A stretch of 64,000 nt of DNA. It comes from Reclinomonas americana ATCC 50394. Its lineage: Eukaryota. Of the stretch, positions 7,762 through 53,200 are shown one piece after another; the stretch's first letter is position 1, and each line of letters starts with the position of its first letter. The notes beneath the pieces are model-generated. The model had not been told where the DNA came from and ran no database searches. It saw only the letters and a program-made list of their open reading frames with translations. The translations under genes were made by a program, and so were the position numbers. Where the stretch lies: positions 80,340 through 144,339 of the forward strand of contig PS015016.1 of assembly GCA_048213135.1 (NCBI GenBank), read 5' to 3'.

Positions 7762-8333
7762 AAGAGTTGTGTGAGAACGAGAAATTGCCGTACGTGTGGC
7801 CCACCCACATGCACAGATTCAGCGCAACACGTACCTGCACTTGCCACCCGTGCGTGAGAGCTTGTCTTTCGTCCTGAGTCGCTGCACACGCACACGTTGC
7901 CACTTCACAGTTGGCAGGTTGTGTCGTCTACGTAGACGTAATCGCAGCCATGCATGATTAATTGCAGTCCCTGNNNNNNNNNNNNNNNNNNNNNNNNNNN
8001 NNNNNNNNNNNNNNNNNNNNNNNNNNNNNNNNNNNNNNNNNNNNNNNNNNNNNNNNNNNNNNNNNNNNNNNNNNNNNNNNNNNNNNNNNNNNNNNNNNNN
8101 NNNNNNNNNNNNNNNNNNNNNNNNNNNNNNNNNNNNNNNNNNNNNNNNNNNNNNNNNNNNNNNNNNNNNNNNNNNNNNNNNNNNNNNNNNNNNNNNNNNN
8201 NNNNNNNNNNNNNNNNNNNNNNNNNNNNNNNNNNNNNNNNNNNNNNNNNNNNNNNNNNNNNNNNNNNNNNNNNNNNNNNNNNNNNNNNNNNNNNNNNNNN
8301 NNNNNNNNNNNNNNNNNNNNNNNNNNNNNNNNN

Positions 8334-9807: not shown

Positions 9808-10261
9808 NNNNNNNNNNNNNNNNNNNNNNNNNNNNNNNNNNNNNNNNNNNNNNNNNNNNNNNNNNNNNNNNNNNNNNNNNNNNNNNNNNNNNNNNNNNNN
9901 NNNNNNNNNNNNNNNNNNNNNNNNNNNNNNNNNNNNNNNNNNNNNNNNNNNNNNNNNNNNNNNNNNNNNNNNNNNNNNNNNNNNNNNNNNNNNNNNNNNN
10001 NNNNNNNNNNNACAGCTGGAACGAGAACGCCGCACCAAGGACATGCCTGAGGAATGATGAAAGAGTGTCGACTTCGATCGCGGCCGCGAACTAGGGGTAC
10101 GGCAGCACCCCAGAAGCCAATGTTGGGAAGCACCCCGTCCCCTTCTTTTTCTGGTCGACAGTACCCCGCACCCGGTGGGCAAAAAAAAGACTGCACCCCC
10201 CCCCCCCGCTCGCGCGCGACAATGATTGTTTGTTCGCCCCCTTCTGCTTGCTCTCCGCAGA

Positions 10262-10724
10262 ATGACCAAGATCTCCACACACGTTCTCGACATCTCCCGC
10301 GGCTGCGTGGCACGCGGCATTCGCGTAGACCTCGAGCGAATGGATTCCTCTGGCGCCTCCTCTTCTTCTTCTTCCTCCACTGGTGATTTCGTGCTGGTCG
10401 GCAATGGAGTCACCGACGACGATGGTCGCGTGCGTGTGTGGAAGGGCGACAGCAGCGAGGCCGGCAGTGGTGCTGCAGGTTGCGTTTTCTTTCCCACCCC
10501 TCTGTGCATTCGTTTGTGTGTGTGTGTCGGCATTGATGACGATGCTGATAGATGGAACGACGTATCGCCTGACGTTCCACACGGGTGAGTATCTGGCGGC
10601 GTACGTGGAGCGCCCGTTCTTCCCGATTGTGCAGCTGGTGTTTGTGGTGCCGAATGGGCAGCAGCACTATCATGTGCCGCTGCTGCTGTCGCCGTTTGGA
10701 TACTCGACCTATCGGGGATCGTAG
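10262..10724 (+). CDS. uraH: 5-hydroxyisourate hydrolase (transthyretin-related protein), one intron 10479-10551
   Basis: N-terminal ISTHVLD, TDDDGR, HYHVPLLLSPFGYSTYRGS with the diagnostic C-terminal YRGS. Confidence 0.95.
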
Positions 10725-10868
10725 TGCGATGTCGCAGCGATGGTTGTTTGCTGCTGCTGTGGTGACGCGTCGAATGCAACAATTCACTGTTTTCACTTGT
10801 GTGCTTTTTGACAATGGGGATGGCGATGAGAGACTGTCTTGTGTGTTGTTTTTTCCCTTCTTGTTTGC

Positions 10869-13646
10869 TCACAGCAAGTTGCAGTCGTCTCCCTTGTCCT
10901 TGCGCCTCTGCTTCTCCAGCGCCTTCATCTCGTCCTTCGTGATCTGTGATGTGTGTCGCGCTTGTGAGTTATCGAGTGGAGGACGGGGGCTTCGAGGGCG
11001 CCGCGGGAACGCACCTGTCGACCTTCTTGTCGTGCGCGATGCTGCAGTTCGGCCAGGCGCCGCTGATGATCCTGTGAAAAGGAAGCGATGAGTGAGGGAA
11101 GGCACAGCACTCGACGCAACGGGCGCACACATACCTCCTCCGCACGCTCATCCTGCCCGCACATCAATGGCACACGCAACAGAGTGAGAAACAGGTCCTC
11201 TAAGGCAAAGCGTGTGGAAAGGTCACACAACACACACCTGTGACATGTTGCGACGACGGCGATGCTCCTGGCGCGCCTCTTGCTCCTCCTCGTACTGCAG
11301 TCGCCGTGCCAGCTCCTCGTCCGTTCTGCGTGAGAGACAGAGAGCGATAAGCAGGTGCGGAGACACAGTCGCCGACAGCCGCGCGGCGCAACTCAGGGCC
11401 AGCGGGGTATTGCGGCGGGCGATTGTAGTTGGGCTGGTGACGCGGATCCACAGCCTGCACATATGCCGATGTGGGATGCGCCGGATGCTGCGGGCCAGAG
11501 GACTGAGCGGGTGCCTGCTGCACGAACCAAGCGAGGGGTGAGTGAGACGGAGAGGCGGCACAGCGGTGTGTTCCTTGCGTTGAAACACACACCCCGTGAT
11601 GCTGCTGCAGGCTGGCCACGAATCCAGGACCACAGTACTGATTGTTACCGCTTACCTGCGCCACAGAGGAGGACGCGACTCACTTCAGCAACGCAGTCGA
11701 GCAAATATGCTCTTGCTTGAAATACGCAACATTCTCAAACAACTCCCACATGACGTCGGGCGCATCGAGGAAGCCAACATCGGTGGCCAGCAAGTACAGC
11801 CGACCGTGGAATTTGTACATGGTGCTGAAGTGATTGTTGCGGAAGAACACGGCCATTTCCGTCTGCGGCGAAAAAAATGGATGAGTGCTGAGCGGCAAGC
11901 GATGAGAGAGAGACAATGCGCACCTCTCGCACGAGGTCCTGCAGCGCGCCGAGACCCCATTGTGTCAACTGACTTGCCGAAGCCTCCAGGAAGCTGTTCA
12001 ACAGGTCGGCTTCGTACACCAACTGTTCCCTCTGCTCCTCTGTCATGCCTTGCGGCGGAGGTCCATCTGGGCACACGGGAGTTGGGCACTCATACACACA
12101 CGAACACACGCACGATGTGAAAGACGCACCATGCCGCAAACTTGACGCATTGATAACCTGCTCCACCACTTGGTTGTAGCTCTTGTCGCCAATGATGCGC
12201 TTCAGCTCTTCGTTGGTGGGATCCACCACCCATCCGTGGTACAGGTTGATGCCCATCATGTCGAACACGTCCATCTGCGACGTGTACTCAAAGTCCGACG
12301 GACTGTGCATGCCACCACCACCACAGTGAGCGATGCGAACACAAACAGACGGCGGGAGATCCAAGAACGAGGGGCGGACCTGCGGAAGCGCACATTGACG
12401 TCGAGGCCGCGGAGGAGCATGGGGAAGTGACCAATCACATCCGACAAGTGCTCCACAAAGCCCGGCTGCTCTTGTTGCTGCACGCGACATGCGATGAGAT
12501 CGAAAAAAATGAAGCAACGACCTGGAAAGATGATGGGGGCACGAACCCTTTGCGTGTGTCTGAACATGTAGTCGCCGAGTGTCTCGAGCAGTTCGCGCGC
12601 CGAAATCATCGAGATGTCGGAGTGGATGGAGATACACCGAGCCAGGAGAAGACCATTGGCTGCATAGCCGCCGTCAGCCACATCATCACAGATACATCAC
12701 GGTCATCGCAAGCCATCACTCACCCAGTGCCTGATTGTAGTCGCCGACAGAAGGAGGAAGAGAGAGGGAGTGAGCAAGAGACACAATGAGAGGGAATCAT
12801 GGAAGGCCGGCTCACTGTGACAGCACACGACACAGGTCAGTCAAGCAGCAGAACACGAGGCGGCGACCGCGCAAACGTCACTTACTGCACCGACAAAGAC
12901 GCGTGAGTGAGCAACACAATCACACCACGGACAACTTCTTGCCACTTAATCACTCACCCCAACAAAGGACACGGGCCGTTCTCATTCTGCAGCACTGCAA
13001 GAGCAACACGCAGACCGCAGTGAGCCAACCCAACAACGCACACATCGCCACACTCACAATCATCGAACACGCACCAATCGACACCGGTTGCCCGTGGAAC
13101 GAGGTCCGCTTCAGGTGGAACATACTCTCGCCTCCCGACATGGGAGCCGGCGGCGCCGCACCAGCCGCCGGCACTGCTGCGACTGGAGGCGGCGGCGGAG
13201 GCGGCAACAGCACTGCTCAACACTTTATGAGCACACACACGCAGACGGACAGACGATTCTCTCTTAACAAATACCTTGCTGCGCCTCCTGCTCGGCCACT
13301 GCGGCCGCCACCGACGCATCCTGCTCGACTTGTCGCTGCACACTGGCGGGTGACATGAGACCCGGGTGGTGTTCCCGCTGCACAGCGGCCTCTGACACAA
13401 TCACTGGTGCAGGAGGTGGCACTGGATGTGCTTCTTGTGCTGGTACTGGTGGTGCTGCTGCTGCGTGATAGACAGGAGCGGCGATCACCTCCGCAGCTGC
13501 TGTGTGTCACACAGTGAGCGCGTGTGTGTGTGAGAAATCGTTTGACAGGAACATCATCATCTTGTTTTCACGCAACGATGTGCGGCCACGACTTCTGTGG
13601 CGAACGGCGGCAACATGTCGTCATCTGCGACGACTGGATGCGACAT
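10869..13646 (-). CDS. MINDY1: MINDY-1/2 (FAM63) family deubiquitinase with MIU-like motif and C-terminal CaaX box, multi-exon
   Basis: Spliced product has QNENGPCPLLALAN (catalytic Cys), GLDVNVRF, LYHGWVVDP, FFRNNHFSTM (catalytic His), DEELARRLQ, and ends DCNLL*. Confidence 0.92.
12731..12959 (-). other. Three-layer nested spliceosomal intron (double [D1,2] stwintron)
   Basis: ttg|G G GTGAGT...GTGCAG TAAGTG...TCACAG TGAGCC...AATCAG|gca; sequential removal gives introns of 73, 71 and 85 nt and restores GPCPLL-ALAN. Confidence 0.85.
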
Positions 13647-13960
13647 TGTGTGTTTGTGTGTGCCTGCGAGTGTGTACGAAAGAGGAGAGGGGGACAAGTC
13701 GGTGAGTGCGCGCGAGAATACACAAACAAGAACATCGCGAGTTGTACTCACGTGTGACTCTGTGTGTGTGTGAGTGAGTGAGTGAGACAGGTGTATGTGG
13801 TGCCTGCGCGCTCGCTGACTGTGCACTTCGCTGCAAGAGGATTGCGAAAACGACAAAATTTCATCCTCTTGTGTAGATTTGGCGTTTTACATTCTCGCGT
13901 TTCTCTCTCTCTCTCTCTCTCCGCTTCTCTTCTCGTTGGCTTTCTCACAAGCCGTACATG

Positions 13961-15535
13961 TTACATCACGGCGCCCTCGTTGAATCGATCTTCGCAGAAA
14001 ATAAGTTGCTGCACCAGTGATAAAAAGCCGGTGTTTTCCGGTCCTGTATCAGTCAGTCAGGAAATCGGTGAGTCGATGGGATTACACAGCAGCATGTGTG
14101 GCGTGTGGCGCCGTACCGACAGCCTGCACGAGTGCGTCGGCCACTTGGTCGTCGTCGTCGGTCGACTGCAGTCTGTGCAAGACGTAAGAGAATGCAACGA
14201 TCGCATGACATGGCTCGCGAGGTAACTCTTTGAGAATGCGGTAGGCCTGGAAGAACGCATCAAAGCCAAGGTTGTCCTCGAGTAGCACGCGCAGCGCCTC
14301 AATGCGATAGCAGAGGCTGTCCTGGGGGGTGACACTCGGCAGACGCAGAGTGGCACCGTCCAGCACGAAGCGGCCGAGACCGTCGGTGGGTGGCGTATCG
14401 GCAACATCCACATCGTCGTCTTCCTCGATATCCGAGGCAGAGGCCGATGGACGGCCGGCCACAGTGGGGGCGGTGGCCACCGACGAGCTGTTGGCCGACG
14501 ACTTGGGACGAGAGGGCGCGGAGCCCCATTCTTCGTCGCTGGACTCGGTGTCCTGTTCGCTCATGCCCAGCACGCCTCGCAAACTCGCCACCATTTGCTG
14601 GTACTCCTCGTCGTCCGTGTTCAGCACCTCATCAGTGTCTGCATAACAACGCGTGTGAGCTGCGTAAAAGCAAGCATCCAACAAGGCAGGCAGCACACAC
14701 AGACCAGGTGCGCTCACAGCCTCGTCGTCGTCGGCCGCCGAGAAATCCTCATCCTCGTTGAACACATCGGCTGCAGCAGGTGCCTCCGCAGCGGCTTCAG
14801 CTGCCGCGGCTGCTGCCGCCGCCGCCAGCTTCACTCCACGCATGGACTCGGCCATCATGGCGCGCGAAAACGTCGCACCCAGGTCCAGTGGAGCCGCCGG
14901 TGCCGCCGCACTGAAGAGCCACACATGAGCGACAGTGGTTGCGCAAAAACACTCACGAANNNNNNNNNNNNNNNNNNNNAGCAGCAGCAGCAGCAGCGGT
15001 CAGTGGCGGCGGGGCAAGGAGTCTAAGAGGAAGAAGAGATGCACACGCCTTCTTGTCGTGCACATGCTTCAGCGCCAGCGTGATTTGCACAAACCAGTCG
15101 AGGATTTGCTGCACGCACAGATCCAAGTAAGCAGGCTGACATGGACGCACACACAGAGCGACAGTGACGCAACATCCTCGTCCAGCAAGGTGCCTTTCTG
15201 CGCCTGAAGTCGACCATACAGATCGCCTGTGCAAGAAGATAGGTCACACAAAGTCAAAGAGAGAGGCACGACTGGAAAAGAGAGTGACCTTTCTCTGCAA
15301 ACTCCATGGTGATGCACAGAGAACCGCCCGACTCGAAGCTCTCAATGTAGCGCACAATGTTGGGATGCCGCAGCGATGACAACACCTTGACCTCATTCAG
15401 TGCTTCCGCGCGCTGCAAATCAATCACAGAGGAAAGAGAGTGAGAGTGAGGGAATGAGACAGTGTGTGCTGAGCATGACTGCCTCTTGTTCTCACCTCCT
15501 TCTGGCTCATGCCCGAGATGTTGATTTGCTTGACT
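13961..15535 (-). CDS. NIMA-related kinase (NEK1-like), partial; subdomains I and VIb-XI fall in gaps
   Basis: VKQINISGMSQKE|RAEALNEVKVLSSLRHPNIVRYIESF...MEFAEKG|DL...ILDWFVQITLALKHVHDKK; NEK1-type C-terminus RIEALRVLLEDNLGFDAFFQAYRIL. Confidence 0.88.
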
Positions 15536-15752: not shown

Positions 15753-18192
15753 TCATGGCGACGATGCTTCGTCGTCATCGTCCACGGCGACGGCGTGTGA
15801 GGTAATTGTGGTCGCGGTACTCGAGATTACTGCGGTGGAGGCCGATGCTCCCAGGTCGCGTTCGTATGACATGTCGCCGACGGCGCCGACCAGTCCCAGC
15901 CGATGCGCGTGCTTGCGGTTGTAGTTCCACTGTACAAGGAAGCCGATGCCGATCGCCAGTCCCCACTGTAGGATGCATGTGGCGAATGACTCGCGACTGA
16001 GTGGGTTCCACCATGGGAACTCCTCCGACAAGCAGGCCTGCGAACGCGCAAAAAAGGTGAGGCATGTGTAACACACCAGTGGGCGACATGCACTGTGTTT
16101 ACCTGCACGAGCGATGCCAAAAGGAGCACACAGCCCTCCACCGGCACGACCCAGGTGATGATAATGTCCCACCATCTGCCCACCTGTTCATGCATCTTCA
16201 GTACAGAGCACGGATGGCAATGCTGAATAAAACAGCACACACACAGACCTTGTCGTGCTCATTGATATTGATGTAGTTGGTGCGGAAGTTCTTGGCGCCG
16301 CCCTTGAGTGCCAACAATGCACACCCGAGACCGCACAGGATGAGACCATTGCCCCACACAAAGTCCTGCACGCGAAGCAATCAGGGCACAACAGCAAGGC
16401 AGCAGGCAACAGTCACACCCGTCGTCGAACCTGATTGGAGAGGTACGAGACGCTGAGGCTGGGCGGGATGGAGCCGGCCAGACAGAAGATGAGCATAAAA
16501 GTGAGCACACGCGGGCGCGGAATGCCGACCTCCGTGCCGATCTTGAGCATCAGATTCAACACCGAGATGTACGAGGTGAAGGCGGCGAAGCTGAGACCGA
16601 GGAAGAAGATGACGGCCAGCGGGCGTCCAAACGTCATCTCCGAGAAGAGTACTGGCAGGAACTGGAAGACCAGACCGGTGCCGGCGACACCACTCTCGCG
16701 CATCTGCAACACGAGCTCCTCCTGTGACAAGAAGGAAAATGAGTCGCTGGAGATCGACAGCTGTGGTGGCGACAAGGATGCGAACCCGAGTGTAGCGATC
16801 GCCCAGAATGCCCCACGTGGCACCAAAGATGGTCATGCCGGCGATCAGCGAGACGCAGTTGTTGCCGATGGGTGTGAGCGCGGCCGTTCTGTTTGATACA
16901 CAATCAAGCAAGTTAGCACAGTGCATGCAAGGCCGCACACATCAACCCAGTCCGCAACTTGGAGATGCCGTTGCGTTCCTATGGGACCGAAGAAACAAAA
17001 GTGAGTCACGGATCTTGCGAGATGAAGAACTTGCTGCCACTCACTGCATGCACAATGCACAGAGTGTCAGCACAATTTGAAGCGGCGACTCACACAGCAT
17101 GCACACATTGCTCACCATCAAAGTATGTCGCATACGACAACAGAATGCCCTGCCAACAAGAAAAAATGGTGCACGCGTCAGCATCGAGCATGTCTCCACT
17201 CGTGAAATCTACAACGACTGCGCACCCAGCCTGCCGACGTGTCAAAGCTGGTCTGTGCCAGCGCTTCCAGATATGCTGTGGGGTTCCACAAAGTGGACGG
17301 ATCGGGTCCAAACATGTAACCGAGACCGCCGCTCGCGCCCAGGAACAGACTGCGAATCCAGATGATGCACAACACCACCAGCAGTGCCGGCACCAGTGTA
17401 TAATTGACCCACTCGATCGAGGCCAGACCGCGCCAACAGCCCAGGATGGCCAGTGTCACCACAATGGCATTGAACAGGTACGGCCATGGAGTGTTCACAA
17501 AGTCGGCGAACTCGCCAGCCGCCTCCGCTGATGACGTTGGCAAGTCATTGATGATGTAGTAGAAAAAGTAGCGTACACACCACCCGTTGACCACGGCTGC
17601 GTGCGGAGGCGTGTGGTAAGCACTCCACACATCCCCATCATTTGCACAGCGAATGATGATGGTGGCGCAACAATAGTAGAGTTCGATCATTACGTTGTTG
17701 ATGACTAGGAAGACTCCGATCCAGCGGAACTTGTCGCCCAAGAAGTATGCAAACGTGCGGATCTACAGCGAGAGAAATGAGTGCGCGCTGGGTACATCAT
17801 GGCAAGCGTGATTATGCGTCAAACGCACCAAGCCTCGTCGTGCCTTGCGGCCTGCGGCGTACTCCAGTAGAATCTACCCATTCACAGAAAAGATCAACAG
17901 CCGCGTATCATCGCCACCGACGAACCGCGACAAACCAGCGGAATGGCCCAGATGAACAGGAACGTGAGCCAAATCAGCAGAAAAAACAGCGCTCCTTGCG
18001 TTCCGCTATTGCGCGCCACAATGCGTGCAAAGCGCCACACTGCACCACACACACGTCAGCGGTTCACCCCATGCTCAACACACGAGTGCACAGACGCACC
18101 ATTGCCTGTGCCGACAGCGCATCCCAACAAACTGAAGAACGTCGTAAACTTGTTGGAGAAGCGCTCCGATTTCGTCTCCTCGCTGCGCACAA
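15753..18192 (-). CDS. Sodium:neurotransmitter symporter (SLC6/NSS) family transporter, paralog 1; start in gap
   Basis: LGCAVGTGNVWRFAR, WAIPL|ILLEY, ALAQTSFDTSAGWG, GTGLVF, FFLGLSFAAFTS; many hydrophobic helices. Confidence 0.92.
16979..17116 (-). other. Two-layer nested intron ([D1,2] stwintron, also resolvable as [A2,3])
   Basis: gat|G GTGAGC...ATGCAG TGAGTG...CCATAG|gaa; internal 72 nt, external 66 nt; restores ungapped alignment with the paralog. Confidence 0.85.
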
Positions 18193-23673: not shown

Positions 23674-26659
23674 ATGGCAGCAGCCACGGTTGAGTTGTCT
23701 CGCTCACATCGCACACCCGTTCCAGAGTGCCTCACCTGAACTCTGTGATGTGTGCAGGATGTGGAGCTGCGTGATCTGCGGCTCGCCGAGTCAAGTCGCA
23801 GTGCCGACACTGATGACACCGACGAAGTGGTGTCGCCAAGTGCAGCCGAGGACGAGCTGCTTCCACGTCGCACCGGGGACGAAGTGGAGAGAATAGAACA
23901 CGCAAGTGGCGGTGGCGATCGCAATGCGTCGTCGTCCAAGGAGTTGTGTTCAGATGTGTGTGAGTGTGCATTGTGTGGCAGGTGTTGATCGTGTGTGGTG
24001 ATGCAGACAAGCACAGCAGGCAGAGGCATCGCAGCGCTTCTCGTCCAAGTGGGCGCTCTTCTTCTCGGTGTTGGGAGTGCGTACACTGTCGATCTGTTTT
24101 GTCATGCATATGTCTGTGTGACTCAACTGGTGCGATGCAGAGTGCTGTGGGGTGAGGCCCGCATGCAGCTTGTTTCTGATCTTTCTGTCGCTCTCTCACT
24201 CGCTCGCTGTGCTCTCCTGTTTCGTCCAGCACCGGGAACTTGTGGAGGTGCGATTGTCTGTTGTGCACTCTGTTGTTCGAGCCCTGCCTGACTCGATCTG
24301 CTTTGCAGATTTCCGCGCATCGTCGCCGCCAATGGAGGCAACGGCGCGCTCTTCTGGCTCATCATCTGGAACGTCTTTCTCTTCCTCTGGGCCATTCCGT
24401 TGGTGCGGGCACACGCTTGTGACGAGACCACACTTCACACTGAAGACTCATTCTCTTGTTCTGCGCCGCAGATTCTTGTCGAATATGGTGCAGGCAGACA
24501 GTTGCGTGCCCATCGATGCAGTGATCTCGCGTGTGTTGAGCACGGCTTGACTCTTCCACACGAACTCCACAGAGCACGGAAAGGAGCAGTTCGTTGCTGG
24601 GGAATGGTGATGTGGTGCACCGTCACGCTCGATGCTCATGTCGCGTGTCACAGGTGGGCGTGTTTTCGCACTTTGTCGGCGATCGATATCGGTGGATGGG
24701 CTGGTACATTGTGCTCACCAATGTGGTGATTATGGTTCGCCGAGTTTTTTCTCTCCTCCCTCGTCGCTGGGCGATTTACCTTCATTTTTCTGGCGTAGGC
24801 CTATTACGGCACACTTACAGGTTGCTTGATGTTACCCCTCGAGGTCATCTGCGGTCACCACTCACTGTTGCACGCGCCGCAGGATGGTGCATCTACTACT
24901 CGGCCGTGTACATTTTCGTGCCGTTGCCCGAGTCGATCGACGATGCCTCCGTACAGTTCAGCAACTTTCTCGACTCACCGTGGCCCGTCGTCCTCAATCT
25001 GGTCGTGCTGCTCCTGGGTCTGCTGTGCTGCTGGAAGGGAGTCAAAACCATTGAGCTGGTACTCGCGCATCGACGTCGCTTCGTGCGCAGGAGGGAATCG
25101 ATCTCACTGCGCTGCATCGTCGCAGGTCAATCTGGTGCTCGTGCCTGTGCTGCTGCTCATCATGGTGGGCCTCACCCTCCGCACTATCTTCATGAGTGTC
25201 GACGGCATTGCGTATCTGTTCTCGCCCGATCCAAGTTGCGTCGTGCTTTGCCATGGCACGTGAATGTTGTTGTGGCGCGCGCACCGACGAGCTGTGTGGA
25301 TGTGCAGGTGTGCTGATCGATCCCAGAGCGTATTTAGAGGCGCTGGCACAAATGACGTTTGACACGTCGGCTGGAACAGTGAGTTGCAAGCGCAAGCGCA
25401 TGTGCCATCTCGTTTGCTCACCTCGCACATCCACGACCGTCGCGTAGGGTGTGCTCATGACCTACGCCACGTATTTCAACGAGCAGGACTCGGTCAGCGG
25501 GTGCGTTCATCTGTTGCTGCCACTACGTCGTCACTCATTCACTCGCTCATTCACACTCACTTACTAGGCTTTCGTGGTTGACACCAATCGGTAATAATGT
25601 GGTGTCGCTGCTGGCGGCACTGACCATGTTCTCTGCTGGCTTCGCCGTGCTCGGTCAGAATGGACTGGACCGCGCCGCGGTGATTGCCCAGATGAAGGAG
25701 AGTGGTGTGGCCGGCACCGGCCTCGTCTTTCACTTTGTGCCGCAGCTCTTCTCGCAGATGCCCTTCGGCCGCCCTATTGGTGCGCGCATGTGTGTGTGTG
25801 CGTCGCTACTAGATTGCGCACTGACCTGCATTTCCTGTGGTAGCCGTCGTGTTCTTTGTGGCACTGAGCTTCGCAGCCTTTAGTTCGTACATTGCCGGTA
25901 TCATTGTGCCGCTCAAGGTCGGCTTCGATATGGGTGTGTCGCGCGGTCGAGTAGTCTTGATTGTCGGTGCCATTCTGCTGGTCTTTTCGCTGCCGAGCTC
26001 GTTCAGTGTCTCGTTCCTGGCCAATCAGGTGCGCTTACTTGCAATGGGGCCAAGGAATGCAGCAGACGCTAACCATCCTCCTCTAGGACAACACATGGGG
26101 CGTTGGTGAGATCCTGTGTGGCATCTTTGTGGCCTGGTTGGCGGTCGGCGGACCGGGTGGTGTGCGCCAGTTCCGCGAGACTGTGATCAATGTGGCAGCG
26201 TCGGATCGCGTCGGTCGCTGGTTCGATTTCATCATTCGCTTTGTGGTGCCGATCGAGACCATCATTCTGTTTCTCGCGTACACCATTCAGGTGCGCTGCG
26301 CACCGCACCACGCTTCCTTGTGACAGTATGCTGTTATTTTTCACACTCGCCACCACAGATGGCACTGGAAGACAACTGGTGGGATCCGTGGGCTGTCGAG
26401 TCGCTGGCCACCTGCTTGATCCAGTGGATCATTGGTGAGTCTCACTTAATCTCCCGCGATCGCCCGTGTGTGTCACTCAAGAAGCGATGCATGACGGGCA
26501 GGATTCGGTGTGTGCTTTGTAGCACAGTGGATGTACTCGCGCAAGCATCCGACAAGAGCCGCCGCTCGGCACGATGCGGTGGGCAGTCTGTCGTATGAGC
26601 GCGGAACCGAGCTGCAAGACAGGAGACACGACGAAGAGGGCGATGCCAACATAACATGA
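23674..26659 (+). CDS. SLC6/NSS family transporter, paralog 2, many introns and micro-exons
   Basis: Spliced FSSKWALFFSVLG|SAVG|TGNLWR|FPR, LEALAQMTFDTSAG, TPIGNN, GVAGTGLVF; collinear with paralog 1. Confidence 0.92.
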
Positions 26660-26749: not shown

Positions 26750-27934
26750 TCACCGCCTGCTGCCGTGCGCATTCTCATACCGCTGCAGCAGTGCCTCCGC
26801 CATCTCACGGTGGTCAAACGCAAAGTCCACTGAGTCGAGTCCTTCCCGAGTCAGCGGAATCCAGCGGTAACCCATGGCCTGCACACGCAAGTGAGCACAT
26901 GGGAACTGGCCTTGAGAGGGAAAAAAGGGACATCGGACGCAACATCGTCGCCGGGGCACAACGACACAAAGCTCCTGACCTCCACGTGGTAGCAAATGGA
27001 GACCTGCACAGCGCACCGTGAGAAAAACAATACAAGCAGTACGCACTGGCGGACAGACGCACCACATGCTTCCTCTTGTCGCGTGACGGGTGCCCGAAAA
27101 CACCGACCACAGTCGGATTGCTGCCGACCAAATTCGTCTCCTCGTGCAACTCACGCAGCACCGCATGCACCGGATCCTCGCCGTACTCCACATACCCGCC
27201 TGCGGCCAAGGGCGACAAATTTATAAGTCCCAGAGAATAAAGAGTTAGCTCCTGACTAAAAAGCACAAACACACCGGGCAATGCGAGGACTCCGCGGAAT
27301 GGATCACGTCCACGAACTATCAACAGCAACTGCGGCTCGCACGACTCGTCGTCGCCGATACGCACCACTCCCGCATCGACCTGCACACACAAACACAGGT
27401 GTCAGTCTGTGTGAGCCTTCTTTTCTCGCATTTCGCGGCGATGAGAAGTTTTCACGAAACTGTCAGCGCGGGGTTCCGGAACACGGGCTCATGTGGCGGC
27501 AGTGGCGGGTACTCGTGACGTGGTGGCAGTACGAGCACTGTCTGTGCTGGTGTCGCCACTGGTGCAGTAGCAGCAGCAGCAGTGGCGGTTGAGGTACCAT
27601 CGTCAGCAGTGGCGGCGGGAACGACCACTGGTGCAGTGGAGTCGCCTGGCGATGACGATGTGGTGCGCACTGATGATGACGATCGATCATCCTCATCGTC
27701 ATCGTCAGTGTCATCAGTGTCATCGACGACATCGTGCACGCGCAAGTCATCGTCGGCAAACGCGGCGCGCTTGCTGTGCTGCAGCATCATCTCCGAAAAT
27801 GGCATCAGTGGTGGCGGCGGCGGGGGTGTCGCGGGGGCTGCAGTTGCGATTGTCGCGGGCTGGCTGCTGGGGCCAGTGGTGGAGAGGGCCAGTGGCGGGG
27901 GGAGGACAACAACAAAGTCGGCGTCGCTCACCAT
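26750..27934 (-). CDS. Nudix hydrolase with low-complexity N-terminal extension
   Basis: NPALT|VDAGV...ALPG|GYVEYGEDPVHAVLRELHEETNL (Nudix box), RDKRKHV, GDDA, AFDH. Confidence 0.9.
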
Positions 27935-30861: not shown

Positions 30862-31302
30862 CCTGCGCAACGCACCAGCAGGAGATGCGATTGTGATTCG
30901 ATGAATCAGGTCCGTCGATCGGGCACCTGTAGATCAAGTGTTTTCTTGTGGGTGCGAGAGAAGATGAGCACGGTCGCCGCTGCCGAGGAGCATGTAGCAA
31001 TGGAGGCAATGTGCCCGCGTTCAGTTGCGTCCTGCTTCAGAGGAACACAGAAACACACAAGCACACACACACGCACTGTATACGTGAGTGCGTTTCTCGA
31101 GGAAAAACCGAAAACTGGTGGCAGTCCGCTCTTTTCCACCACGCGCCTTGCTCCTCCACGCACATACACGCACGCACACACAAACACACACACACACACA
31201 CACACACACATTGTGCACGACACTCTCCTTGGCACCACGTTCGCTAGCTCTCGCCGCGCACTTGATGAGAGACAACTAACGAAGAAATCGTGAACCGCAC
31301 AG

Positions 31303-34230: not shown

Positions 34231-34326
34231 AGAAAAAGAGCGAGAGAGAGAGGAGAGAAAAAAGTAGTGAAAGTAACGCACTACGTGTTTGTTTCGTTTC
34301 CAGCTCTATGCGTCAGTCACCTCGTT

Positions 34327-35437
34327 TCACTCGCCTTCATCGCCCTCGCGCACACGAGACCAGTTGGGACTCGGCCGGTCGGGAGCGAGCCAATTGAAAT
34401 CCTGCACACAATCCCACTTGTTGACATGCGACTGCAGTCGACTGTCACCGGCCAGTTCGGCGATCCCCTTCCACGGACCGAACTGAAGCCGCGTACACCG
34501 TTCAATGATGGGGTTCGAGCCTGCGTGGATGTGGAAGACACAGTCGGTTGTGTCGTGGATGCGGAACTGTGCACACGATAGTATGAGAAGTGAACAGACG
34601 TGGACCTTGTTGTCAAGGCAGCAAAGTGCACCTGATGCGCTGCGATGCGGAAGGTGCACGACTGGCACGACTCCACGTACACACTGCCGCACACACCGCC
34701 GAGTTCGACGGTGCAATCGCGCAATCCAATAATGTGCGCAGCCGACGCCAGCACATGCCACTCCACCGAGGCACCCTGCAGTTCATGCAGCACCAGATCC
34801 TTGCCGGCCGGCGACGCGCCAGTCCACTCAGCCGAGCGCAGACACGAGGCAGCCGGCACCTCTGCGGCCGTCAACACCACCGCGTTGGCATTGCGCAGCG
34901 ACTCGACACTGCGCACAGCCGGCGGCGCACTCGACGAGGAAGAAGTCGAGCCTCCGCCGTCGCCAGCAGCTGAGCTCTCGGTCTTCACCACACGTCGCGA
35001 GGCAAACGAAAACTTCTTCTTCGGCACCGCCCGCTCACGCGCACCAGTCACCTCCCGCGTCAGATCCTCCAGCAGCTTCTGCACTTGCCGAGTGTCGTAC
35101 GGCGTCAGAAAATAGGCCGAGCTCGAGAACAGGTTCGACAGCGTGGCCACGCGATCCAACAAGCCCACAAACATCGACTCCTCGCCCGCACCACCAACAG
35201 TCGACAAGACCGCGCGTATCCCTGTCGATCGCCAAAGGTGAGAACAAAGACAACTCCCATTCTCTCTCTCACACACACACCCTGCGCCTCCTCCTGAATG
35301 CGAGTCAACACCACCGCCGCATTCTCCGACGGATCTGCCTTCTCCTCGCGCTCACGTCGACGCTCTTCCACCGCTCGCTGTCGTTCTTCCATGCGTTCGC
35401 GCATGCGAGCTTCAATGCCCGCCGCCGCCGCTGTCAT
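34327..35437 (-). CDS. TBCC: Tubulin-specific chaperone C
   Basis: FLTPYDTRQ, PKKKFSF, GSVYVESCQSC..IAAHQ|FRIH...PIIERC...NKWDCVQDFNWL. Confidence 0.95.
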
Positions 35438-42800: not shown

Positions 42801-45800
42801 GCCTTGCAAACACACGGGCGTGCTGAAACACACCTTCGACTGATGTAATGCGATTGTCTTCGGCAGTGAGCGACTCCAGAGCGGCAGCGCATCCCTCGAG
42901 ACCCTGCAGGGATCGGATCTGATTGATGGACACGCGCAGGGTGCGCAAGACCCGCTGTCTCTCGAGACCACCGAGTTGAGTCAGCTTGTTATCGCTCAGT
43001 ACCAACTCCTGCACGGCGCAGTGTCAGACTCAAGTCGCTGCTGTAGTGGCACACACATCGTCGTCACCTCCAGCGCTTCAAGACGGGAGAGACCCTCAAT
43101 GCGCTGCAACTGGTTGGCGTTCAGCTCCAGCGACCGCAAATTCACAAAACTGCATGCACACACAGTGTGTGACCAACGAGTCGCAATCGGTCGGTCGCCT
43201 TGTGCACGAGTTTCATGCTCACCTGTCCAAGCCACGACCAATGGCCGTGATGTTTTCCACGTTCAACTTGACTTCGGCGACACGCTGTGGTGCCACAGTC
43301 CCGTAGTGCAACGACAACAAAAACTCCAAATCACTTTCGTCGGCGCCAGTCGACGATGCAGTCATGGGCCGTCTATTACACGGAGAAGAAAAAGTGTGAG
43401 AACGTGGTGGTGACGAGGAGCCAAGCGGCTCGGCGATCAACTGCACCCGTCATTCATCGACTCCAGCACCGACAGTGAGCGCGACGCGCCAGCAGAGCGT
43501 TCTGGAGTGCCAACAAGTGCTCCCACCGAGGCCGAGACGGCTGTCCGCAGGAACTCACGCACAACACTCTCGACCAGCGTCCTCCACTGACGCTGTCCGG
43601 TCTCCAGATTCTACCAGCATGCAACATAAGTACATGTACACACAGCAGGCGACCAGGTGCACAAAAGTACCTGCAGAGCAGCGGGGAGCACCCACGCGAT
43701 ACCACCGCGCTCGATCGACGCGCCGAACAGTGCTGCACCAGGGGTGCGCACACAACACAACAGGGGCGGACATGGTGCGCCAACTGCCAGTATTGTCGGT
43801 CGTGAGGTGCCTCGCGCTGACACGGCTCTGACCGCAGCGACTTCAACACGCCGAGCCACATGGTGCGCATGTGTTGTGGAGTCGAGCACAGGTAGAATGA
43901 GCGCAAGCCGACGACGCTCGGCCTCCGCCTCCGCCTCGGCACGCAATCGTTCAAGCTCCCGCTGTTTGGCTGCCTCGGCCCTCCTCCTCTCCTCCGCCAA
44001 GCGCGCCTCTTCCGCCTTCCGAGCCTCCTCTGCGCGCTGAGCCTCCTCGGCCTTGCGTGCTTCCTCGGCTTTGCGCGCCTCTTCGGCTTTCTTCCGCGCT
44101 GCCTCCTGCCGTTCTTGCTCCTCGCGCTCCTTTCGCTCGACCTCCTCTTGTCGCCGTCGTCGCTGCAAGTGCGCGAATACGTGTTTTGTGATTCAACACA
44201 GCACAAAGCAGTTACCGTCTCGAGAAGAAGAATACACACTGACCTCCATCTCCTCACGCAGCCGCCGCTCTTCCTCTGCACGACGTTCGCGCTCCATTCG
44301 CGCTGCCTCCTGCTTCCGTGCCTCGGCCAGCAGCCGCTCCTGCTCCAGTCGTGCGGCCTCCTCTTGCCGACAACGTTCCGCCTGCACTCTCTCTGCTCGC
44401 CACATATCCAACTCGGCCATGTACGCGCGCAGTGCCTCGACGTTACGCTGCTGCTCCTCCTCTCGCTCCATGAGGTACATCTCGCGAGATCTGCAGAGCC
44501 AACACGTCAATCAACCCCGATACTCCGCCTCCTGGTTGTGAATGCACGCATACGAAACTGTCGAAGTCGCTCCCCCTCGGCCGCATACTGCACATCCAGC
44601 TGGAGTCGCTCTATCTCTCGGAGTGCGGCCTCTTCGCGCTGGCGCTGTGCCTCCTTTTGTCGCTGCTGGCTTTCCAGCTGTGCTTGCCGATACTCTTCCT
44701 CCACCAGCTGCCGCTTCCGCTCCAATTCACGCTCCTGCTCCTCGATTTTGCGCCTCCGCTCGACCTACACACATTATCACAGACACAGAGAGGGTTGAGC
44801 GGTTGCGCCAGCGACATGTCGGTGCTGCAAAAGGGAGCAGACCTCGAATGCTTTTGCTTCCTCCTCGAGTTTTCGTCGACGCTCTTCCGCCTCACGCTCA
44901 CGACGCGCACGCTCCTCCTGCCGCTGTCGTTGACGCTGCTCTTCATGTTCCCGTGCCTCTGCTCGTCGTCTCATCTGCTCCAGCTGCAACCGCAGAGCAG
45001 GATTCGTTTCCAAATCATCGGCGTCGAGATCCATGTCAGCGGGGAGCAACGGCGAAGCCGATGATGAATGTACGAGCGAGGCCGCTGCGTTCGGCAGCAT
45101 CGTTGTCGTGATAGCAGCCAGCGACGCTGTCGATGGTCGGCTGGACTCGGCGAGAGGTGTACTCTGCAGTGACGACGGCGTGAGACACAAAGCTGCACGG
45201 CCTGTTTGCTCTTCCCACCAGCAGCACCTGTCGAAGCGAACGAGCACTCGTCGCAGCCGCTGACCGCGCACTCGCGTCGGTGGGACCGGCGGGAACACCG
45301 CCAAACACGTCAAACTCATCACTCGTGGCCGACGACGACACGTGAGTGGCGGCAGTGGGCGGCCGTGTTGATGACCACTCTGCGCGCGCACACAACAACA
45401 CCAACACTGCATGAGCCGGCGAGAGTGGGCAACATGTCAAGCGTCCCGCAGCAACGCAACCGAACGAGTCGCCAGTGGCCGGCCGACTCGGCGGTGTGGC
45501 CAGCATGCGCGGACAGACCTGGCCCAACTCATCCAACATGGACTCCACACGGCGACTGTTCTCCTCAATCCGTCGCTGCCTCTCCTCCGCCAAGCGCGCC
45601 ACCACCTGCACACTCTCGCGCTTCTGCCGCAGCTCAAACTCTGCGGCGGATCAGCAAGTCAATGACAACTCACTCTCATACACGCACGAATGACCAACGC
45701 CACCTTTCTGCACCGACTCACGCACTCGATCGCGCAGTCTCTCCATGCGATCCGGCGCATCCAAGTCAATGCCCAGCGTATACGACTCTGGCAGCACCGC

Positions 45801-50200: not shown

Positions 50201-53200
50201 GTCGATAGTCACTGTTGTTCTGTAGATTTTCTCGTGCAAGTGTTACAGGGTCAGAGTGAGAGCAAGGTTATTGTGTGGCTGGCTGCCATTATCAAGGTGT
50301 GTGTGCGACCTGTACATGTCTCTTTCATTGTGCATGCGCAACTCATTCTCGAGATGCGGACAGGACGAGCCAATGGTGCTCGACGCAGTGCCGCTTCGAT
50401 TCATTTGTCAGCTGGCCGTGCATGAACGGCTTGCTGTCGGCAGCTCGCGGTACGCATCCACCAGTCCACCAACTCCGTTGCTTCGGCAAACACGCTTGTC
50501 TCACGCGAGATATTTGTTACACAGCCGGCTCACTGATTCACTCGTGCGCGTGGTCAGTCGTCTACGCAGTCTCTTTCAGGTGTGCTGCTCTCCCGTCTTA
50601 TTTTTGCTACCCTCACTCTCTCATCGCGGTCCCTGAATCACCAGGTCCCGCCCACCGATGTGGAAAATACGGTGCTGTTGGACGAGATCATTGTCTATCT
50701 CTTCCAGGCGCTCTCGAATGGGTGCGTCGCGCACCGCAATTCTCTTGCGCTCTGGCTGTTGCTCTTGCTAACATCTCCCACAGCACGCGTTCTACGCGTC
50801 TGAACGTGAAGCTGATCATGACGCTCCTGTTCCTCTCGACTGTGTCGACCGAGAGTCTGGCTGAGAGTGCCGACATGCCACCGCCCACGCTTGATGTTGC
50901 GTCGTGTGCACACGCATGCATGCATTTTTCGTTTGGTCGTCAAGTGTCTTATGTCATGTGTACAGTGGCTGTCGGCCATGGCTCAGCACAGTGCGTGGCC
51001 TCGCGTCGGTCAAGCATGTGTGCAGCACTGCTTGGCCGCCTGTTCGGTCGAGTCGGATCGGGCCTCCTTGCAAACGCTGCTCGTGTTCGTGGTGGAGCAG
51101 CTTTCGATTTCGGATGCCGGCCCCGATGTGTGGATAGTGCGCTACTGTTTGTTAGTTGTATCAGGCAGCCGTTTCTCCATCCCTCACCCGGTTTCGTTGC
51201 TCGTACAGCTGTTCTTGACGGCGGTGTCGACAAGTTTGTGTGTCCGCCGCGAGCTTTCCCCGCAGGTCAACTCTGGCTTCTTCGCTGCCCTCATTCACCA
51301 CTTGGTCGTCAGCATTCAGTCTGGCCGTCTGCAGCTGGTGAGTGTGTCATTCGTCAGCAATGGGAGCGCATCTTCTCGGGAGAACTAAAGTACGCTCGCT
51401 TGATGCGCAGCCGGAGAGCGCGCCCGAGTCGCTACCGACGGTACACATTGGTGCTTCGGTGGTGCGACTGCCGGAGAAGGCGTGGGATGGCTTGTGTGCA
51501 GTGTTTGCTTCAGCCACCGACTCCACTGGCTTTGGCGGCACTCCTCTCCAATTCTTCACCGCTGCCGTCAGCTCGACAAACAGCCCTGCGTTCTTCAGCA
51601 TGCTGTCCCGTCGTCTTGTCGACGCTATCGACGAGCGACTTGCCGGGCTAGGTGAGTTAGTTGCAGTGCTGTCGCAACCTTGCGTGGCCTCGTCTATTGA
51701 CTCGCAAATGCGTAGCTCTGGCACATGCTCAAGCGGTCGACGTGTTGGATGCGCTGAATATGGCTCGCACTCCGCCGTTTGTGGACGCGTGCAGCAACGC
51801 GTTGCGCCAATTGGCTGGACAGCGCGACATTGTGTCGCTGCTGCTGCAGAGTGTTACCGAAGTGCGCGCGTCACCAGCAGTGCATCCGTTTATCCTGTCG
51901 CAGCTGGAGCAGTCGTCGGTCGAAGGTTCGGCAGATGTGTGTTCACCACCACGTCTTCCCTCTCTCTGTGTTTTAAGGAACGTGGGATTGTTGCGTAGCT
52001 GTGAGCACAGCAGCGAGGCTAGCCGCCGGGGAGCTGTTCGGCTCCAGCGGTCGTGTGGGCATTGCGGCTCAAGGCACCGTCGGTGTTCGGCGACGATTCA
52101 ACCTCACAAAAACTCCCAGTCGTCGTTGCGTAACGCCGCACACCGAGTCCTATGATGTAGTCCTACTTATTTGTGTGCCTCCCTTCACAGCGAGCGCCAA
52201 GGATGCGCTTCTCGAAGCGGTACGCCATTTGTCGCTGCGTGGATTCTCGCTTTTTCTCTTTCTCACTATACGTGTCCTCCGTCAGCGACGCGCCTCCTTT
52301 GCGGACGCCACCATGTTGCAGACTGGGCAGTTAACCGCGCGCACGCGACCACCGCACCACACGGCAGTGGCAAGTGCCACCGCTGCGCCAGTGCACATTT
52401 CTGCAGTGGTGGAGGAGAGCGTGCACTCGTCGGCAGCGTCCACCACGCGCCCATTCCGCATGCTGCTGCAACTCTCGGAGCAACTCATGCGAGAGCATAG
52501 CTCGTCGGCCACCGCAGCACACGTGCAAGCAGCTCTGACGCACATTGCTGAGCATGGTTGGAGGCACGCACTGCATCTGCGGAAAGTAATGTGTTGCTCA
52601 CACGGTCGCTCGCGTGCAGATGCTCTGGCCAGCTCCCCACGCCTCGTCTCCGTGCTGCTGGCGGCCATCGAACTGCTCAATCCGCATGACGTTACGGCAT
52701 CTGTTCAACGAGTACTGCCGGGTCTGGCTCGAGTTCCCGAGTTGCGACAGTTGACCTGCCTCCTGGTGCACTACATGGTGCACGCCACCAGTCCGGAGAG
52801 TGGAATCGAGCTGCTGCACCGCCTCTACGATCAACATGTTGCGTCGCGTCGCTCCGTACATTTCGTGTGCGCGATGTGCTGCTTATTCAACTCAATAGGC
52901 CTCTGGGCAACTGGTGCCGTGGGTTGTACTCGAGTTGTTGCACAACTTGATCACACGCTTCCTGTCCGAGTGCGTGATGGAGTACAAGACGAGAGCCATT
53001 GGCAGGTGCGCTTTCCACACCATTGTTTGTAACCCCCGCACTTGTATGCTGTGCGACACTGACGTGCGCACAATGTGCAGACCAAGTGCCTATGCGGCAA
53101 ACATGCTGACCCTTGTCCGACACGTGGTTCCCGCGTCGCGTGTGGATCAAGTGATTGCTTGCATTGTGCGCACGCCTTGTGTTCGCGTTCTATCCCGCGG

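Follow-up and report, generated by a model that had tools for sequence, protein, structure and literature searches.

How could the 229 bases that interrupt a gene directly behind its catalytic cysteine be removed so that the reading frame continues, when they contain three overlapping introns? This question is raised by a MINDY-type deubiquitinase gene in a stretch of 64,000 nucleotides (nt) from Reclinomonas americana ATCC 50394 (assembly GCA_048213135.1, contig PS015016.1, positions 80,340 to 144,339 of the forward strand), which we will henceforth refer to as the window; positions are those of the window, and the pattern scans and the similarity comparisons of introns reported here were confined to it. 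We propose, as a sequence-based prediction, that the MINDY chain is probably spliced in three steps.

The MINDY gene and the spacing that its messenger RNA has to restore

The Pfam family MINDY_DUB (PF04424) matches both the exon at 12131-12301 (E = 1.3e-15) and the open reading frame (ORF) at 11735-12673 (E = 1.6e-24), and the gene carries features of the family, i.e., the QNxNGPCP motif with the catalytic cysteine and a downstream histidine region (FFRNNHF, aligned to P0003, the nearest full-length relative). Comparing P0003 with the window by tblastn, we found the gene to be collinear with it through FFRNNHF, with many short introns and no internal frameshift in the exons. Since the gene is collinear with P0003 and its exons are free of frameshifts, it looks functional, i.e., like an intact MINDY-type deubiquitinase.

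When all of 1.84 billion representatives were scanned with the exon at 12131-12301 as query, 1043 relatives were obtained at E ≤ 0.001. The motif NGPC[PA] was present in 63 of the best 150 of these 1043 homologues, and among the 63 the residue seven positions after the cysteine (Cys+7) is Asn in 62, and that at Cys+4 is Ala in 54. Judged by its homologues, the MINDY messenger RNA (mRNA) must have exactly 18 bases between the Cys codon and the Asn codon. Of 15 top matches examined, eight bear a name: six are named as animals, one as ‘hypothetical protein’ and one is a eukprot entry with the prefix ‘Clim’, which we take to be the holozoan Corallochytrium. None of these names is that of a fungus, which is weak evidence on the affiliation of the host.

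Anatomy of the three-unit complex

On the minus strand, 229 bases separate TTGTTG, with which the exon GTGCTGCAGAATGAGAACGGCCCGTGTCCTTTGTTG (VLQNENGPCPLL) terminates at 12960, from the 7-base exon GCACTGG. These bases read, in order, G-G, GTGAGT..GTGCAG, TAAGT..TCACAG and TGAGC..AATCAG, and positions 12960-12957 form a run of four Gs. The parts of the complex and its flanks are the following:

12960..12994, minus strand: MINDY exon, (V)LQNENGPCPLL with the catalytic Cys, ending ..CCT TTG TTG (from the sequence; motif common to 63 homologues)
12958..12959, minus strand: two spare Gs (from the sequence and the path enumeration)
12885..12957, minus strand: intron unit A, 73 nt, GTGAGT..CTCACTCAC..GTGCAG (from the sequence)
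12815..12884, minus strand: remainder of unit B, TAAGT..CTGAC..TCACAG, 70 nt, or 71 nt with its donor G (from the sequence)
12731..12814, minus strand: remainder of unit C, TGAGC..CTCAC..AATCAG, 84 nt, or 85 nt with its donor G (from the sequence)
12724..12730, minus strand: micro-exon GCACTGG, 7 nt, coding for Ala-Leu plus base 1 of Ala (demanded by the invariant Cys+7 Asn spacing)
12660..12723, minus strand: intron D, ordinary, 64 nt, GTGAGT..CTGAC..TATGCAG, phase 1 (from the sequence)
12547..12659, minus strand: following MINDY exon, (A)NGLLLARCISIHSDISMISARELLETLGDYMFRHTQR (from homology)

Three canonical introns can be seen simultaneously in the primary transcript (12957-12885, 12885-12815 and 12815-12731), and neighbouring units share one G, which is at once the G of an AG and the G of a GT. 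Specifically, G12885, the last base of unit A, doubles as the first G of a GTAAGT donor, and G12815 is common to units B and C. Each unit has a branch motif 19-40 nt ahead of its AG (CTCAC in A, CTGAC in B, CTCAC in C), and the exon after intron D begins CCAATGGTCTT.. and codes for (A)NGLLLARC... The whole complex lies inside an N-free segment (10012-14959). A preliminary description, made by reading the letters of this DNA, had given coordinates and motifs for units A, B and C and for the spare Gs, together with the 7-nt exon and a normal intron after it, all of which proved correct; it had also pointed to the branch-like CTGAC of unit B, which is present and has counterparts of the form CT[GC]AC in A and C.

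We read the 229 bases as three ordinary U2-type introns linked in a chain, with lengths of 73, 71 and 85 nt. Wherever two units meet (..YA-G-TRAGY..), one G would end one AG and start the next GT, meaning that an excised unit would carry off the shared G and its neighbour would borrow a G from the flank (two are available upstream and one downstream). Once A has been excised, G12958 would complete the donor of unit B as its G1; G12959 would do the same for unit C or, in alternative orders, be kept as base 1 of the Ala codon. Three consecutive standard reactions, each using the nearest donor, branch site and acceptor (intron definition), would take out exactly 229 nt and give the join ..GGC CCG TGT CCT TTG TTG + GCA CTG G, which, with intron D out as well, would read GPCPLLALANGLLL. 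In terms used for fungi, this would be a [D1,2] stwintron (i.e., one in which an internal U2 intron lies between G1 and U2 of the outer donor) whose external intron serves in turn as the inner intron of another [D1,2] stwintron. The spliceosome would presumably perform this stepwise removal in vivo, and its usual route is likely to be the 5'-to-3' co-transcriptional order.

Splicing paths that give the right protein

To compare this product with those of conventional splicing, we enumerated chains between the Cys and the Asn codons that consisted of up to three side-by-side canonical introns (GT/GC-AG, each at least 20 nt long), and scored the products with a profile of 59 MINDY homologues. 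The enumeration comprised 7240 single-level chains, which gave 461 distinct in-frame products. None of these chains reaches the three-step product CPLLALAN, which at 82.1 bits scores above all 461 single-level products and carries both the Asn at Cys+7 and the Ala at Cys+4. The runner-up products (79.9-75.5 bits) require introns of 20-23 nt and exons of 3-4 nt.

Exhaustive in-silico enumeration of the removal orders showed that three of them yield the mature junction (A>B>C, A>C>B and C>A>B). The first uses up the two upstream Gs, and the other two use one upstream and one downstream G; three orders are workable because the units overlap by one shared G and because a G follows the last acceptor. 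Removing unit B first, or pairing distal sites, gives products that are longer by 1, 2, 58 or 73 nt. Several expectations of the preliminary description can be judged from these results. Its product, GPCPLL-ALANGLLL, was said to fit the MINDY consensus and indeed has the top profile score, with Asn at Cys+7 and Ala at Cys+4 as in the homologues, and the one-step GT-AG removal that it had considered does leave two extra Gs and lose the frame. Its three intron units with borrowed-G donors, which are of the U2 type, passed every sequence-level test applied here; the strict order that it had proposed for their removal does not stand, as three orders give the same mRNA.

A second complex in the transporter gene SNF-1

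We scanned both strands for a structural pattern consisting of a G, an intron and a TRNGY-intron, with a branch motif in each intron. Only two loci in the window matched, namely the MINDY complex and 17116-16979. The second locus belongs to SNF-1, an SLC6 transporter gene (Pfam PF00209, sodium:neurotransmitter symporter, in the ORF at 17178-17762; E = 1e-06, 28.2 bits with a cut-off of 27), whose paralogue SNF-2 is also in the window. The relevant features are the following:

16979..17116, minus strand: SNF-1 two-intron complex of the [D1,2]/[A2,3] type, with a G on each flank (from the structural scan and comparison with SNF-2)
16947..16978, minus strand: SNF-1 exon ERNGISKLRTG, 32 nt, in frame only with G17116 removed (from comparison with SNF-2)
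25448..25500, plus strand: SNF-2 exon (GVLMTYATYFNEQDSVSG), unbroken across the site of the SNF-1 complex (from the paralogue alignment)

The SNF-1 complex stands in the context ..TAC TTT GAT, G, GTGAGC..ATGCAG, TGAGTG..CCCATAG, GAACGC. Its inner intron (17115-17044, 72 nt, GTGAGC..CTGAC..ATGCAG) follows G17116 and is itself followed by TGAGTG..CTCAC..CCCATAG. SNF-2, on the plus strand, has the flanking introns at the same positions but reads YATYFNEQDSVSG through this site and has no intron there. When aligned with SNF-2, the two-step product of SNF-1 matches on both sides of the junction (score 208), and the alignment of the one-step product ends at the junction (score 120); in this way the paralogue within the window confirms the join that SNF-1 would require. 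By its layout, the SNF-1 complex is an additional [D1,2]/[A2,3] stwintron. The equality between the number of spare Gs and the number of internal junctions, which the preliminary description had remarked on at MINDY (two and two), is found here too (one and one).

The SNF-1 region (15800-18190, minus strand) and the SNF-2 region (24540-26300, plus strand) lie about 6 kb apart in opposite orientation. At least two of their intron positions coincide (after DTSAG[W/T] and at ..G|), and they differ at the stwintron site.

We then set both complexes against the features that define [D1,2] stwintrons. An internal U2 intron lies between G1 and U2 of the outer donor both at MINDY (G12958 + GTGAGT..CTCAC..GTGCAG + TAAGT) and at SNF-1 (G17116 + GTGAGC..CTGAC..ATGCAG + TGAGT). 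In silico, excision of the inner intron creates a complete outer intron whose removal restores the frame at both MINDY and SNF-1. One-step excision between the distal sites leaves G behind (+2 nt at MINDY, +1 nt at SNF-1), and homology is lost past the junction. The order of removal can vary without changing the mRNA, as in [D1,2]/[A2,3] stwintrons: both orders work at SNF-1 in the in-silico enumeration, and three at MINDY, which has GG upstream and G downstream. Where a stwintron has exactly two units, as SNF-1 does, MINDY has three units and two junctions.

Intron features, chance and competing explanations

As a reference set we used 12 ordinary introns anchored by homology in MINDY, SNF-1 and SNF-2. 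They are 58-80 nt long, 11 of the 12 have a G at position -1, all 12 end in YAG, and 11 have CT[GCA]A[CT] 8-40 nt from the 3' end. Set beside the 58-80 nt of these neighbours, the 73, 71 and 85 nt of the three MINDY units agree with the typical intron length that had been claimed for them.

We also assessed how often such a complex would arise by chance. Keeping the first donor and the last 50 nt unchanged, we counted the sequences in which canonical splicing in several steps could arrive at exactly the mature junction. For MINDY there were none among 5000 mononucleotide shuffles and 5 among 5000 random segments of the window, and some of these 5 may overlap the real locus; for SNF-1 the counts were 24 and 38 of 5000, respectively. 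A cruder, dinucleotide-type shuffle gave 3 of 3000 for MINDY and 74 of 3000 for SNF-1. The arrangement at MINDY is more than a product of chance.

Several observations weigh against three-step splicing at MINDY. It additionally requires a 7-nt micro-exon. The 8-mer YAG|TRAGY is found at 20 sites on both strands of the window, most of which are ordinary donors after an exon ending in YA, and when the two-intron structural pattern was run as a non-G control, it matched 4 times, with 2 of the matches independent of both loci (vs. 2 real ones). As the motif alone is not rare and rarity of the pattern by itself proves little, the weight rests on the match between the anatomy and what the reading frame needs. 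The three visible introns compete, with middle-first removal or distal pairing producing a frameshift, meaning that correct splicing would depend on kinetics. The window (1-64000) contains 19 runs of N, 13 of which are exactly 20 N long, and is thus a scaffolded, gapped draft. Finally, there is one single-level alternative, and only one, with introns of normal length; it gives PLLGDALA, i.e., it inserts Gly-Asp, and scores 73.7 bits.

This alternative would place introns side by side with tiny exons (12957-12881, a 4-nt exon TGAC, 12876-12731, the 7-nt exon and intron D) and would give GPCPLL-GD-ALAN. Its introns, of 77 and 146 nt, are canonical GT-AG introns and the product is in frame; we nevertheless regard this alternative as highly improbable. 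Its score falls below the 82.1 bits of the three-step product, its two additional residues disturb a spacing that is constant in 62 of 63 homologues, it relies on an AAG acceptor where all 12 ordinary neighbours have YAG, and two micro-exons, one of 4 and one of 7 nt, would have to follow each other. The single-level products that score higher depend, as described above, on introns of 20-23 nt.

The competition between introns could also mean that splicing at this site is mostly unproductive, or that the gene is decaying, with overlapping splice sites giving frameshifted transcripts that are then degraded and the three-step route rarely or never used. Only three orders succeed, all other paths adding 1, 2, 58 or 73 nt, and fungal [D1,2] stwintrons are reported to be occasionally mis-spliced via their distal sites with one G left (PMC12403724). 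We give this explanation little credence: the remaining MINDY exons are open and conserved, including those with the catalytic Cys and FFRNNHF, a decaying gene would not be expected to hold a number of spare Gs that matches its junctions exactly, and the same design recurs at SNF-1, in a gene well conserved relative to its paralogue.

The draft state of the assembly, with its many 20-N gaps, bears on a further explanation, in which there is one intron of about 227 nt, the extra GG is either a homopolymer assembly error or removed by a non-canonical 5' cleavage two bases upstream of GTGAGT, and the internal junctions are coincidental. Removal in one step from GTGAGT to AATCAG is indeed canonical in silico. 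However, an error of two bases would have to fall within a 4-base run. In MINDY and both SNF genes, some 300 codons can be aligned to homologues or paralogues with no frameshift in an exon. The two internal junctions with their own branch motifs would be left unexplained (chance 0-5 in 5000), as would the same logic at SNF-1, with its one G and one junction, and an intron of 227 nt would be an outlier, about three times as long as the largest of its 12 ordinary neighbours. We consider this single-intron explanation very unlikely, and three-step splicing of the MINDY chain the better account of the locus.

Possible origin of the chains

The simplest account of the origin of the MINDY chain would be that introns were gained one after another at the 5' end of an intron already present, and that a G was added each time. 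An extra G per insertion is also what the gain model of the authors of the fungal work requires (PMC12403724). The position of the SNF-1 complex is empty in the paralogue SNF-2, and the MINDY chain lies 7 nt upstream of intron D. The only related genomic locus that we found is a metagenome contig (L001) whose MINDY is 56% identical. At 190-300 it retains an intron (GTACGT..GGCAAG) that is unspliced and agrees with intron D in codon position and phase. The contig is uninterrupted at the LL|A site and is otherwise a 350-codon open frame. The contig is probably a partly spliced transcript and, since it may be one, its empty LL|A site is no evidence that the introns are absent from the gene.

Searched against the window with blastn-short, units A, B and C, intron D and the SNF-1 units gave only matches of 10-19 nt, and we found no similarity among the units. 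The predicted RNA folds of the two complexes were no better than those of shuffled sequences (z = -0.96 and +0.37), and no near-terminal stem was found in them. These complexes differ in this from the sister stwintrons of the Xylariales, given that their units are dissimilar and fold as shuffles do.

A broader hypothesis, which we put forward tentatively and consider rather doubtful, is that introns were gained recurrently at G1|U2 of existing donors (as a GT..AG unit with a duplicated G) in a host that is possibly not an ascomycete, and that stacked chains of two, three or more overlapping units are common throughout the genome. The latter would be expected from the presence of two loci in 64 kb.

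Other genes and pattern matches in the window

Pfam was run on 25 long ORFs of the window, and the only names returned were MINDY, SNF, TBCC and NUDIX. The TBCC match is a tubulin cofactor C-like ORF with TBCC_N and TBCC domains (34317-35351, minus strand) and the NUDIX match is an ORF with that domain (26814-27401, minus strand); the majority of the remaining long ORFs are without a Pfam match. A word-indexed search gave zero homologues for the TBCC-like ORF and for the SNF ORF, and neither Rfam families nor transfer RNAs were found in the window.

GTGAG, the commonest donor in the window, is the reverse complement of CTCAC, the commonest branch motif, meaning that the antisense of an intron is also intron-like; a loose intron pattern had 229 matches on the minus strand and 203 on the plus strand. 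Pattern matches at 32351-32272 and 24979-24860 (both minus strand) were dropped for want of gene support. A [D2,3]-pattern match near 43009 was spurious, the sequence there (43067-43009, minus strand) being a short ordinary intron in a leucine-rich-repeat gene (..LELNANQLQRIEGLSRLEALE / ELVLSDNKLTQLGGLE..).

At 31209-30927 (minus strand) there is an intron-like pair that shares a G (..TATACAG/TGCGTG..) and has another G directly behind it; the surroundings are rich in (GT)n, and no coding context could be recognised in them. This pair, which overlaps at 31076, may be a further case of overlapping introns or due to chance, and the sequence is possibly non-coding. At 7895-7745 (minus strand), beside a gap of 360 N, two intron-like units abut (..GTGCAG/GTACGT.., at 7835/7834), which may represent an arrangement with a zero-length exon or merely an exon ending in CAG. 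An additional pattern match lies near 50449.

Significance

Stwintrons are among the few structures that record the birth of new spliceosomal introns, and the occurrence of a three-unit chain with two Gs beside a two-unit chain with one G fits a stepwise rule of ‘one intron, one G’. If the host is not an ascomycete, the phenomenon is extended. If the broader hypothesis of recurrent gain outlined above is true, stacking of the [D1,2] type would be a general outcome of intron gain in eukaryotes and not a peculiarity of the Xylariales or the Aspergilli, and nature would offer a case where it depends on the splicing order whether a functional or a frameshifted mRNA results. The MINDY complex is a small, naturally occurring test case for intron definition and for the order of splicing: three orders would give a working enzyme, and the failing ones would shift the frame right past the catalytic cysteine. 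As standard gene finders cannot model such loci, the genes that contain them would be mis-annotated or truncated, and the overlapping-intron pattern is worth including in annotation pipelines.

Comparison with known systems

Stepwise removal with regeneration of a 5' splice site is also a property of recursive splicing. Ratchet points of the form AG|GTRAGT, with zero-length exons, occur in long introns of Drosophila and vertebrates; these introns measure tens of kilobases, the full GT comes from the ratchet point, no spare G is used, and stepwise removal is not essential for the frame. The MINDY complex resembles this system in that it would be removed piecewise, starting at its 5' end, and that each step would restore a 5' splice site at the junction. 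It differs in that its junctions (AG|TAAGT and AG|TGAGC) are without a G of their own, that the complex measures 229 nt and its pieces 71-85 nt, and that each step would move the cut by one base; neither AG|GTRAGT junctions nor a very long intron are found here.

Introners, or introner-like elements, create introns where there were none before, in some cases with part of a splice site supplied by a short duplication of the target (summarised in PMC12403724; see also PMC9860276), and such a family has many sequence-similar copies in one genome. Within the 64 kb, the units described here show no repeat family, terminal inverted repeats or similarity among introns.

Closer parallels are found among fungi. 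In the reticulon-like genes of Lipomyces, nested U2 introns of the types [D4,5], [D6,7] and [D7,8] are removed in two steps, and their origin has been proposed to lie in new splice sites or in duplication of the donor; this is described as the first stwintron outside the Pezizomycotina, yet within the Ascomycota (PMC7138796). Nesting near the 5' end of the external intron is common to Lipomyces and the complexes described here; the Lipomyces introns differ in having only two units and in being inserted at other points in or just after the donor. The [D1,2]/[A2,3] stwintron in dhaoS of Trichoderma reesei has been shown experimentally to give the same mRNA whichever intron is removed first (PMC5587772). 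It shares with SNF-1 its two terminally overlapping U2 introns, with one shared G and an exonic G on each side, and the same overlap principle would underlie the alternative orders at MINDY. Unlike dhaoS, MINDY has three units and two borrowed Gs, and removal of its middle unit first is a dead end.

A literature search found no non-fungal stwintron, all primary stwintron studies that it found being fungal, and a three-unit stwintron was not found in the main text of the stwintron papers searched for such wording, whose supplementary lists could contain one. The [D1,2] stwintrons themselves are known from ascomycetes, for example Aspergillus nidulans, Hypoxylon sp. CO27-5 and Xylaria spp. (PMC12403724, PMC9024468, PMC8469720 and PMC5639578), and nearly all fungal stwintrons are [D1,2] according to PMC12403724. 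The complexes reported here resemble the fungal [D1,2] stwintrons in having an internal U2 intron between G1 and U2 of the outer donor, in their predicted removal by consecutive canonical reactions under intron definition, and in that distal one-step excision leaves an intronic G and breaks the frame. Fungal [D1,2] stwintrons are, moreover, often found at positions vacant in homologues, as is the case here for SNF-1 relative to SNF-2. The branch motif of the present complexes is CTCAC/CTGAC, and they are unlike the sister stwintrons of the Xylariales, which are symmetrical and stem-bearing. Unlike the fungal [D1,2] stwintrons, the MINDY chain has three units and two spare Gs, and its interpretation as a [D1,2] stwintron extended to three units with two shared Gs is a well-supported prediction.

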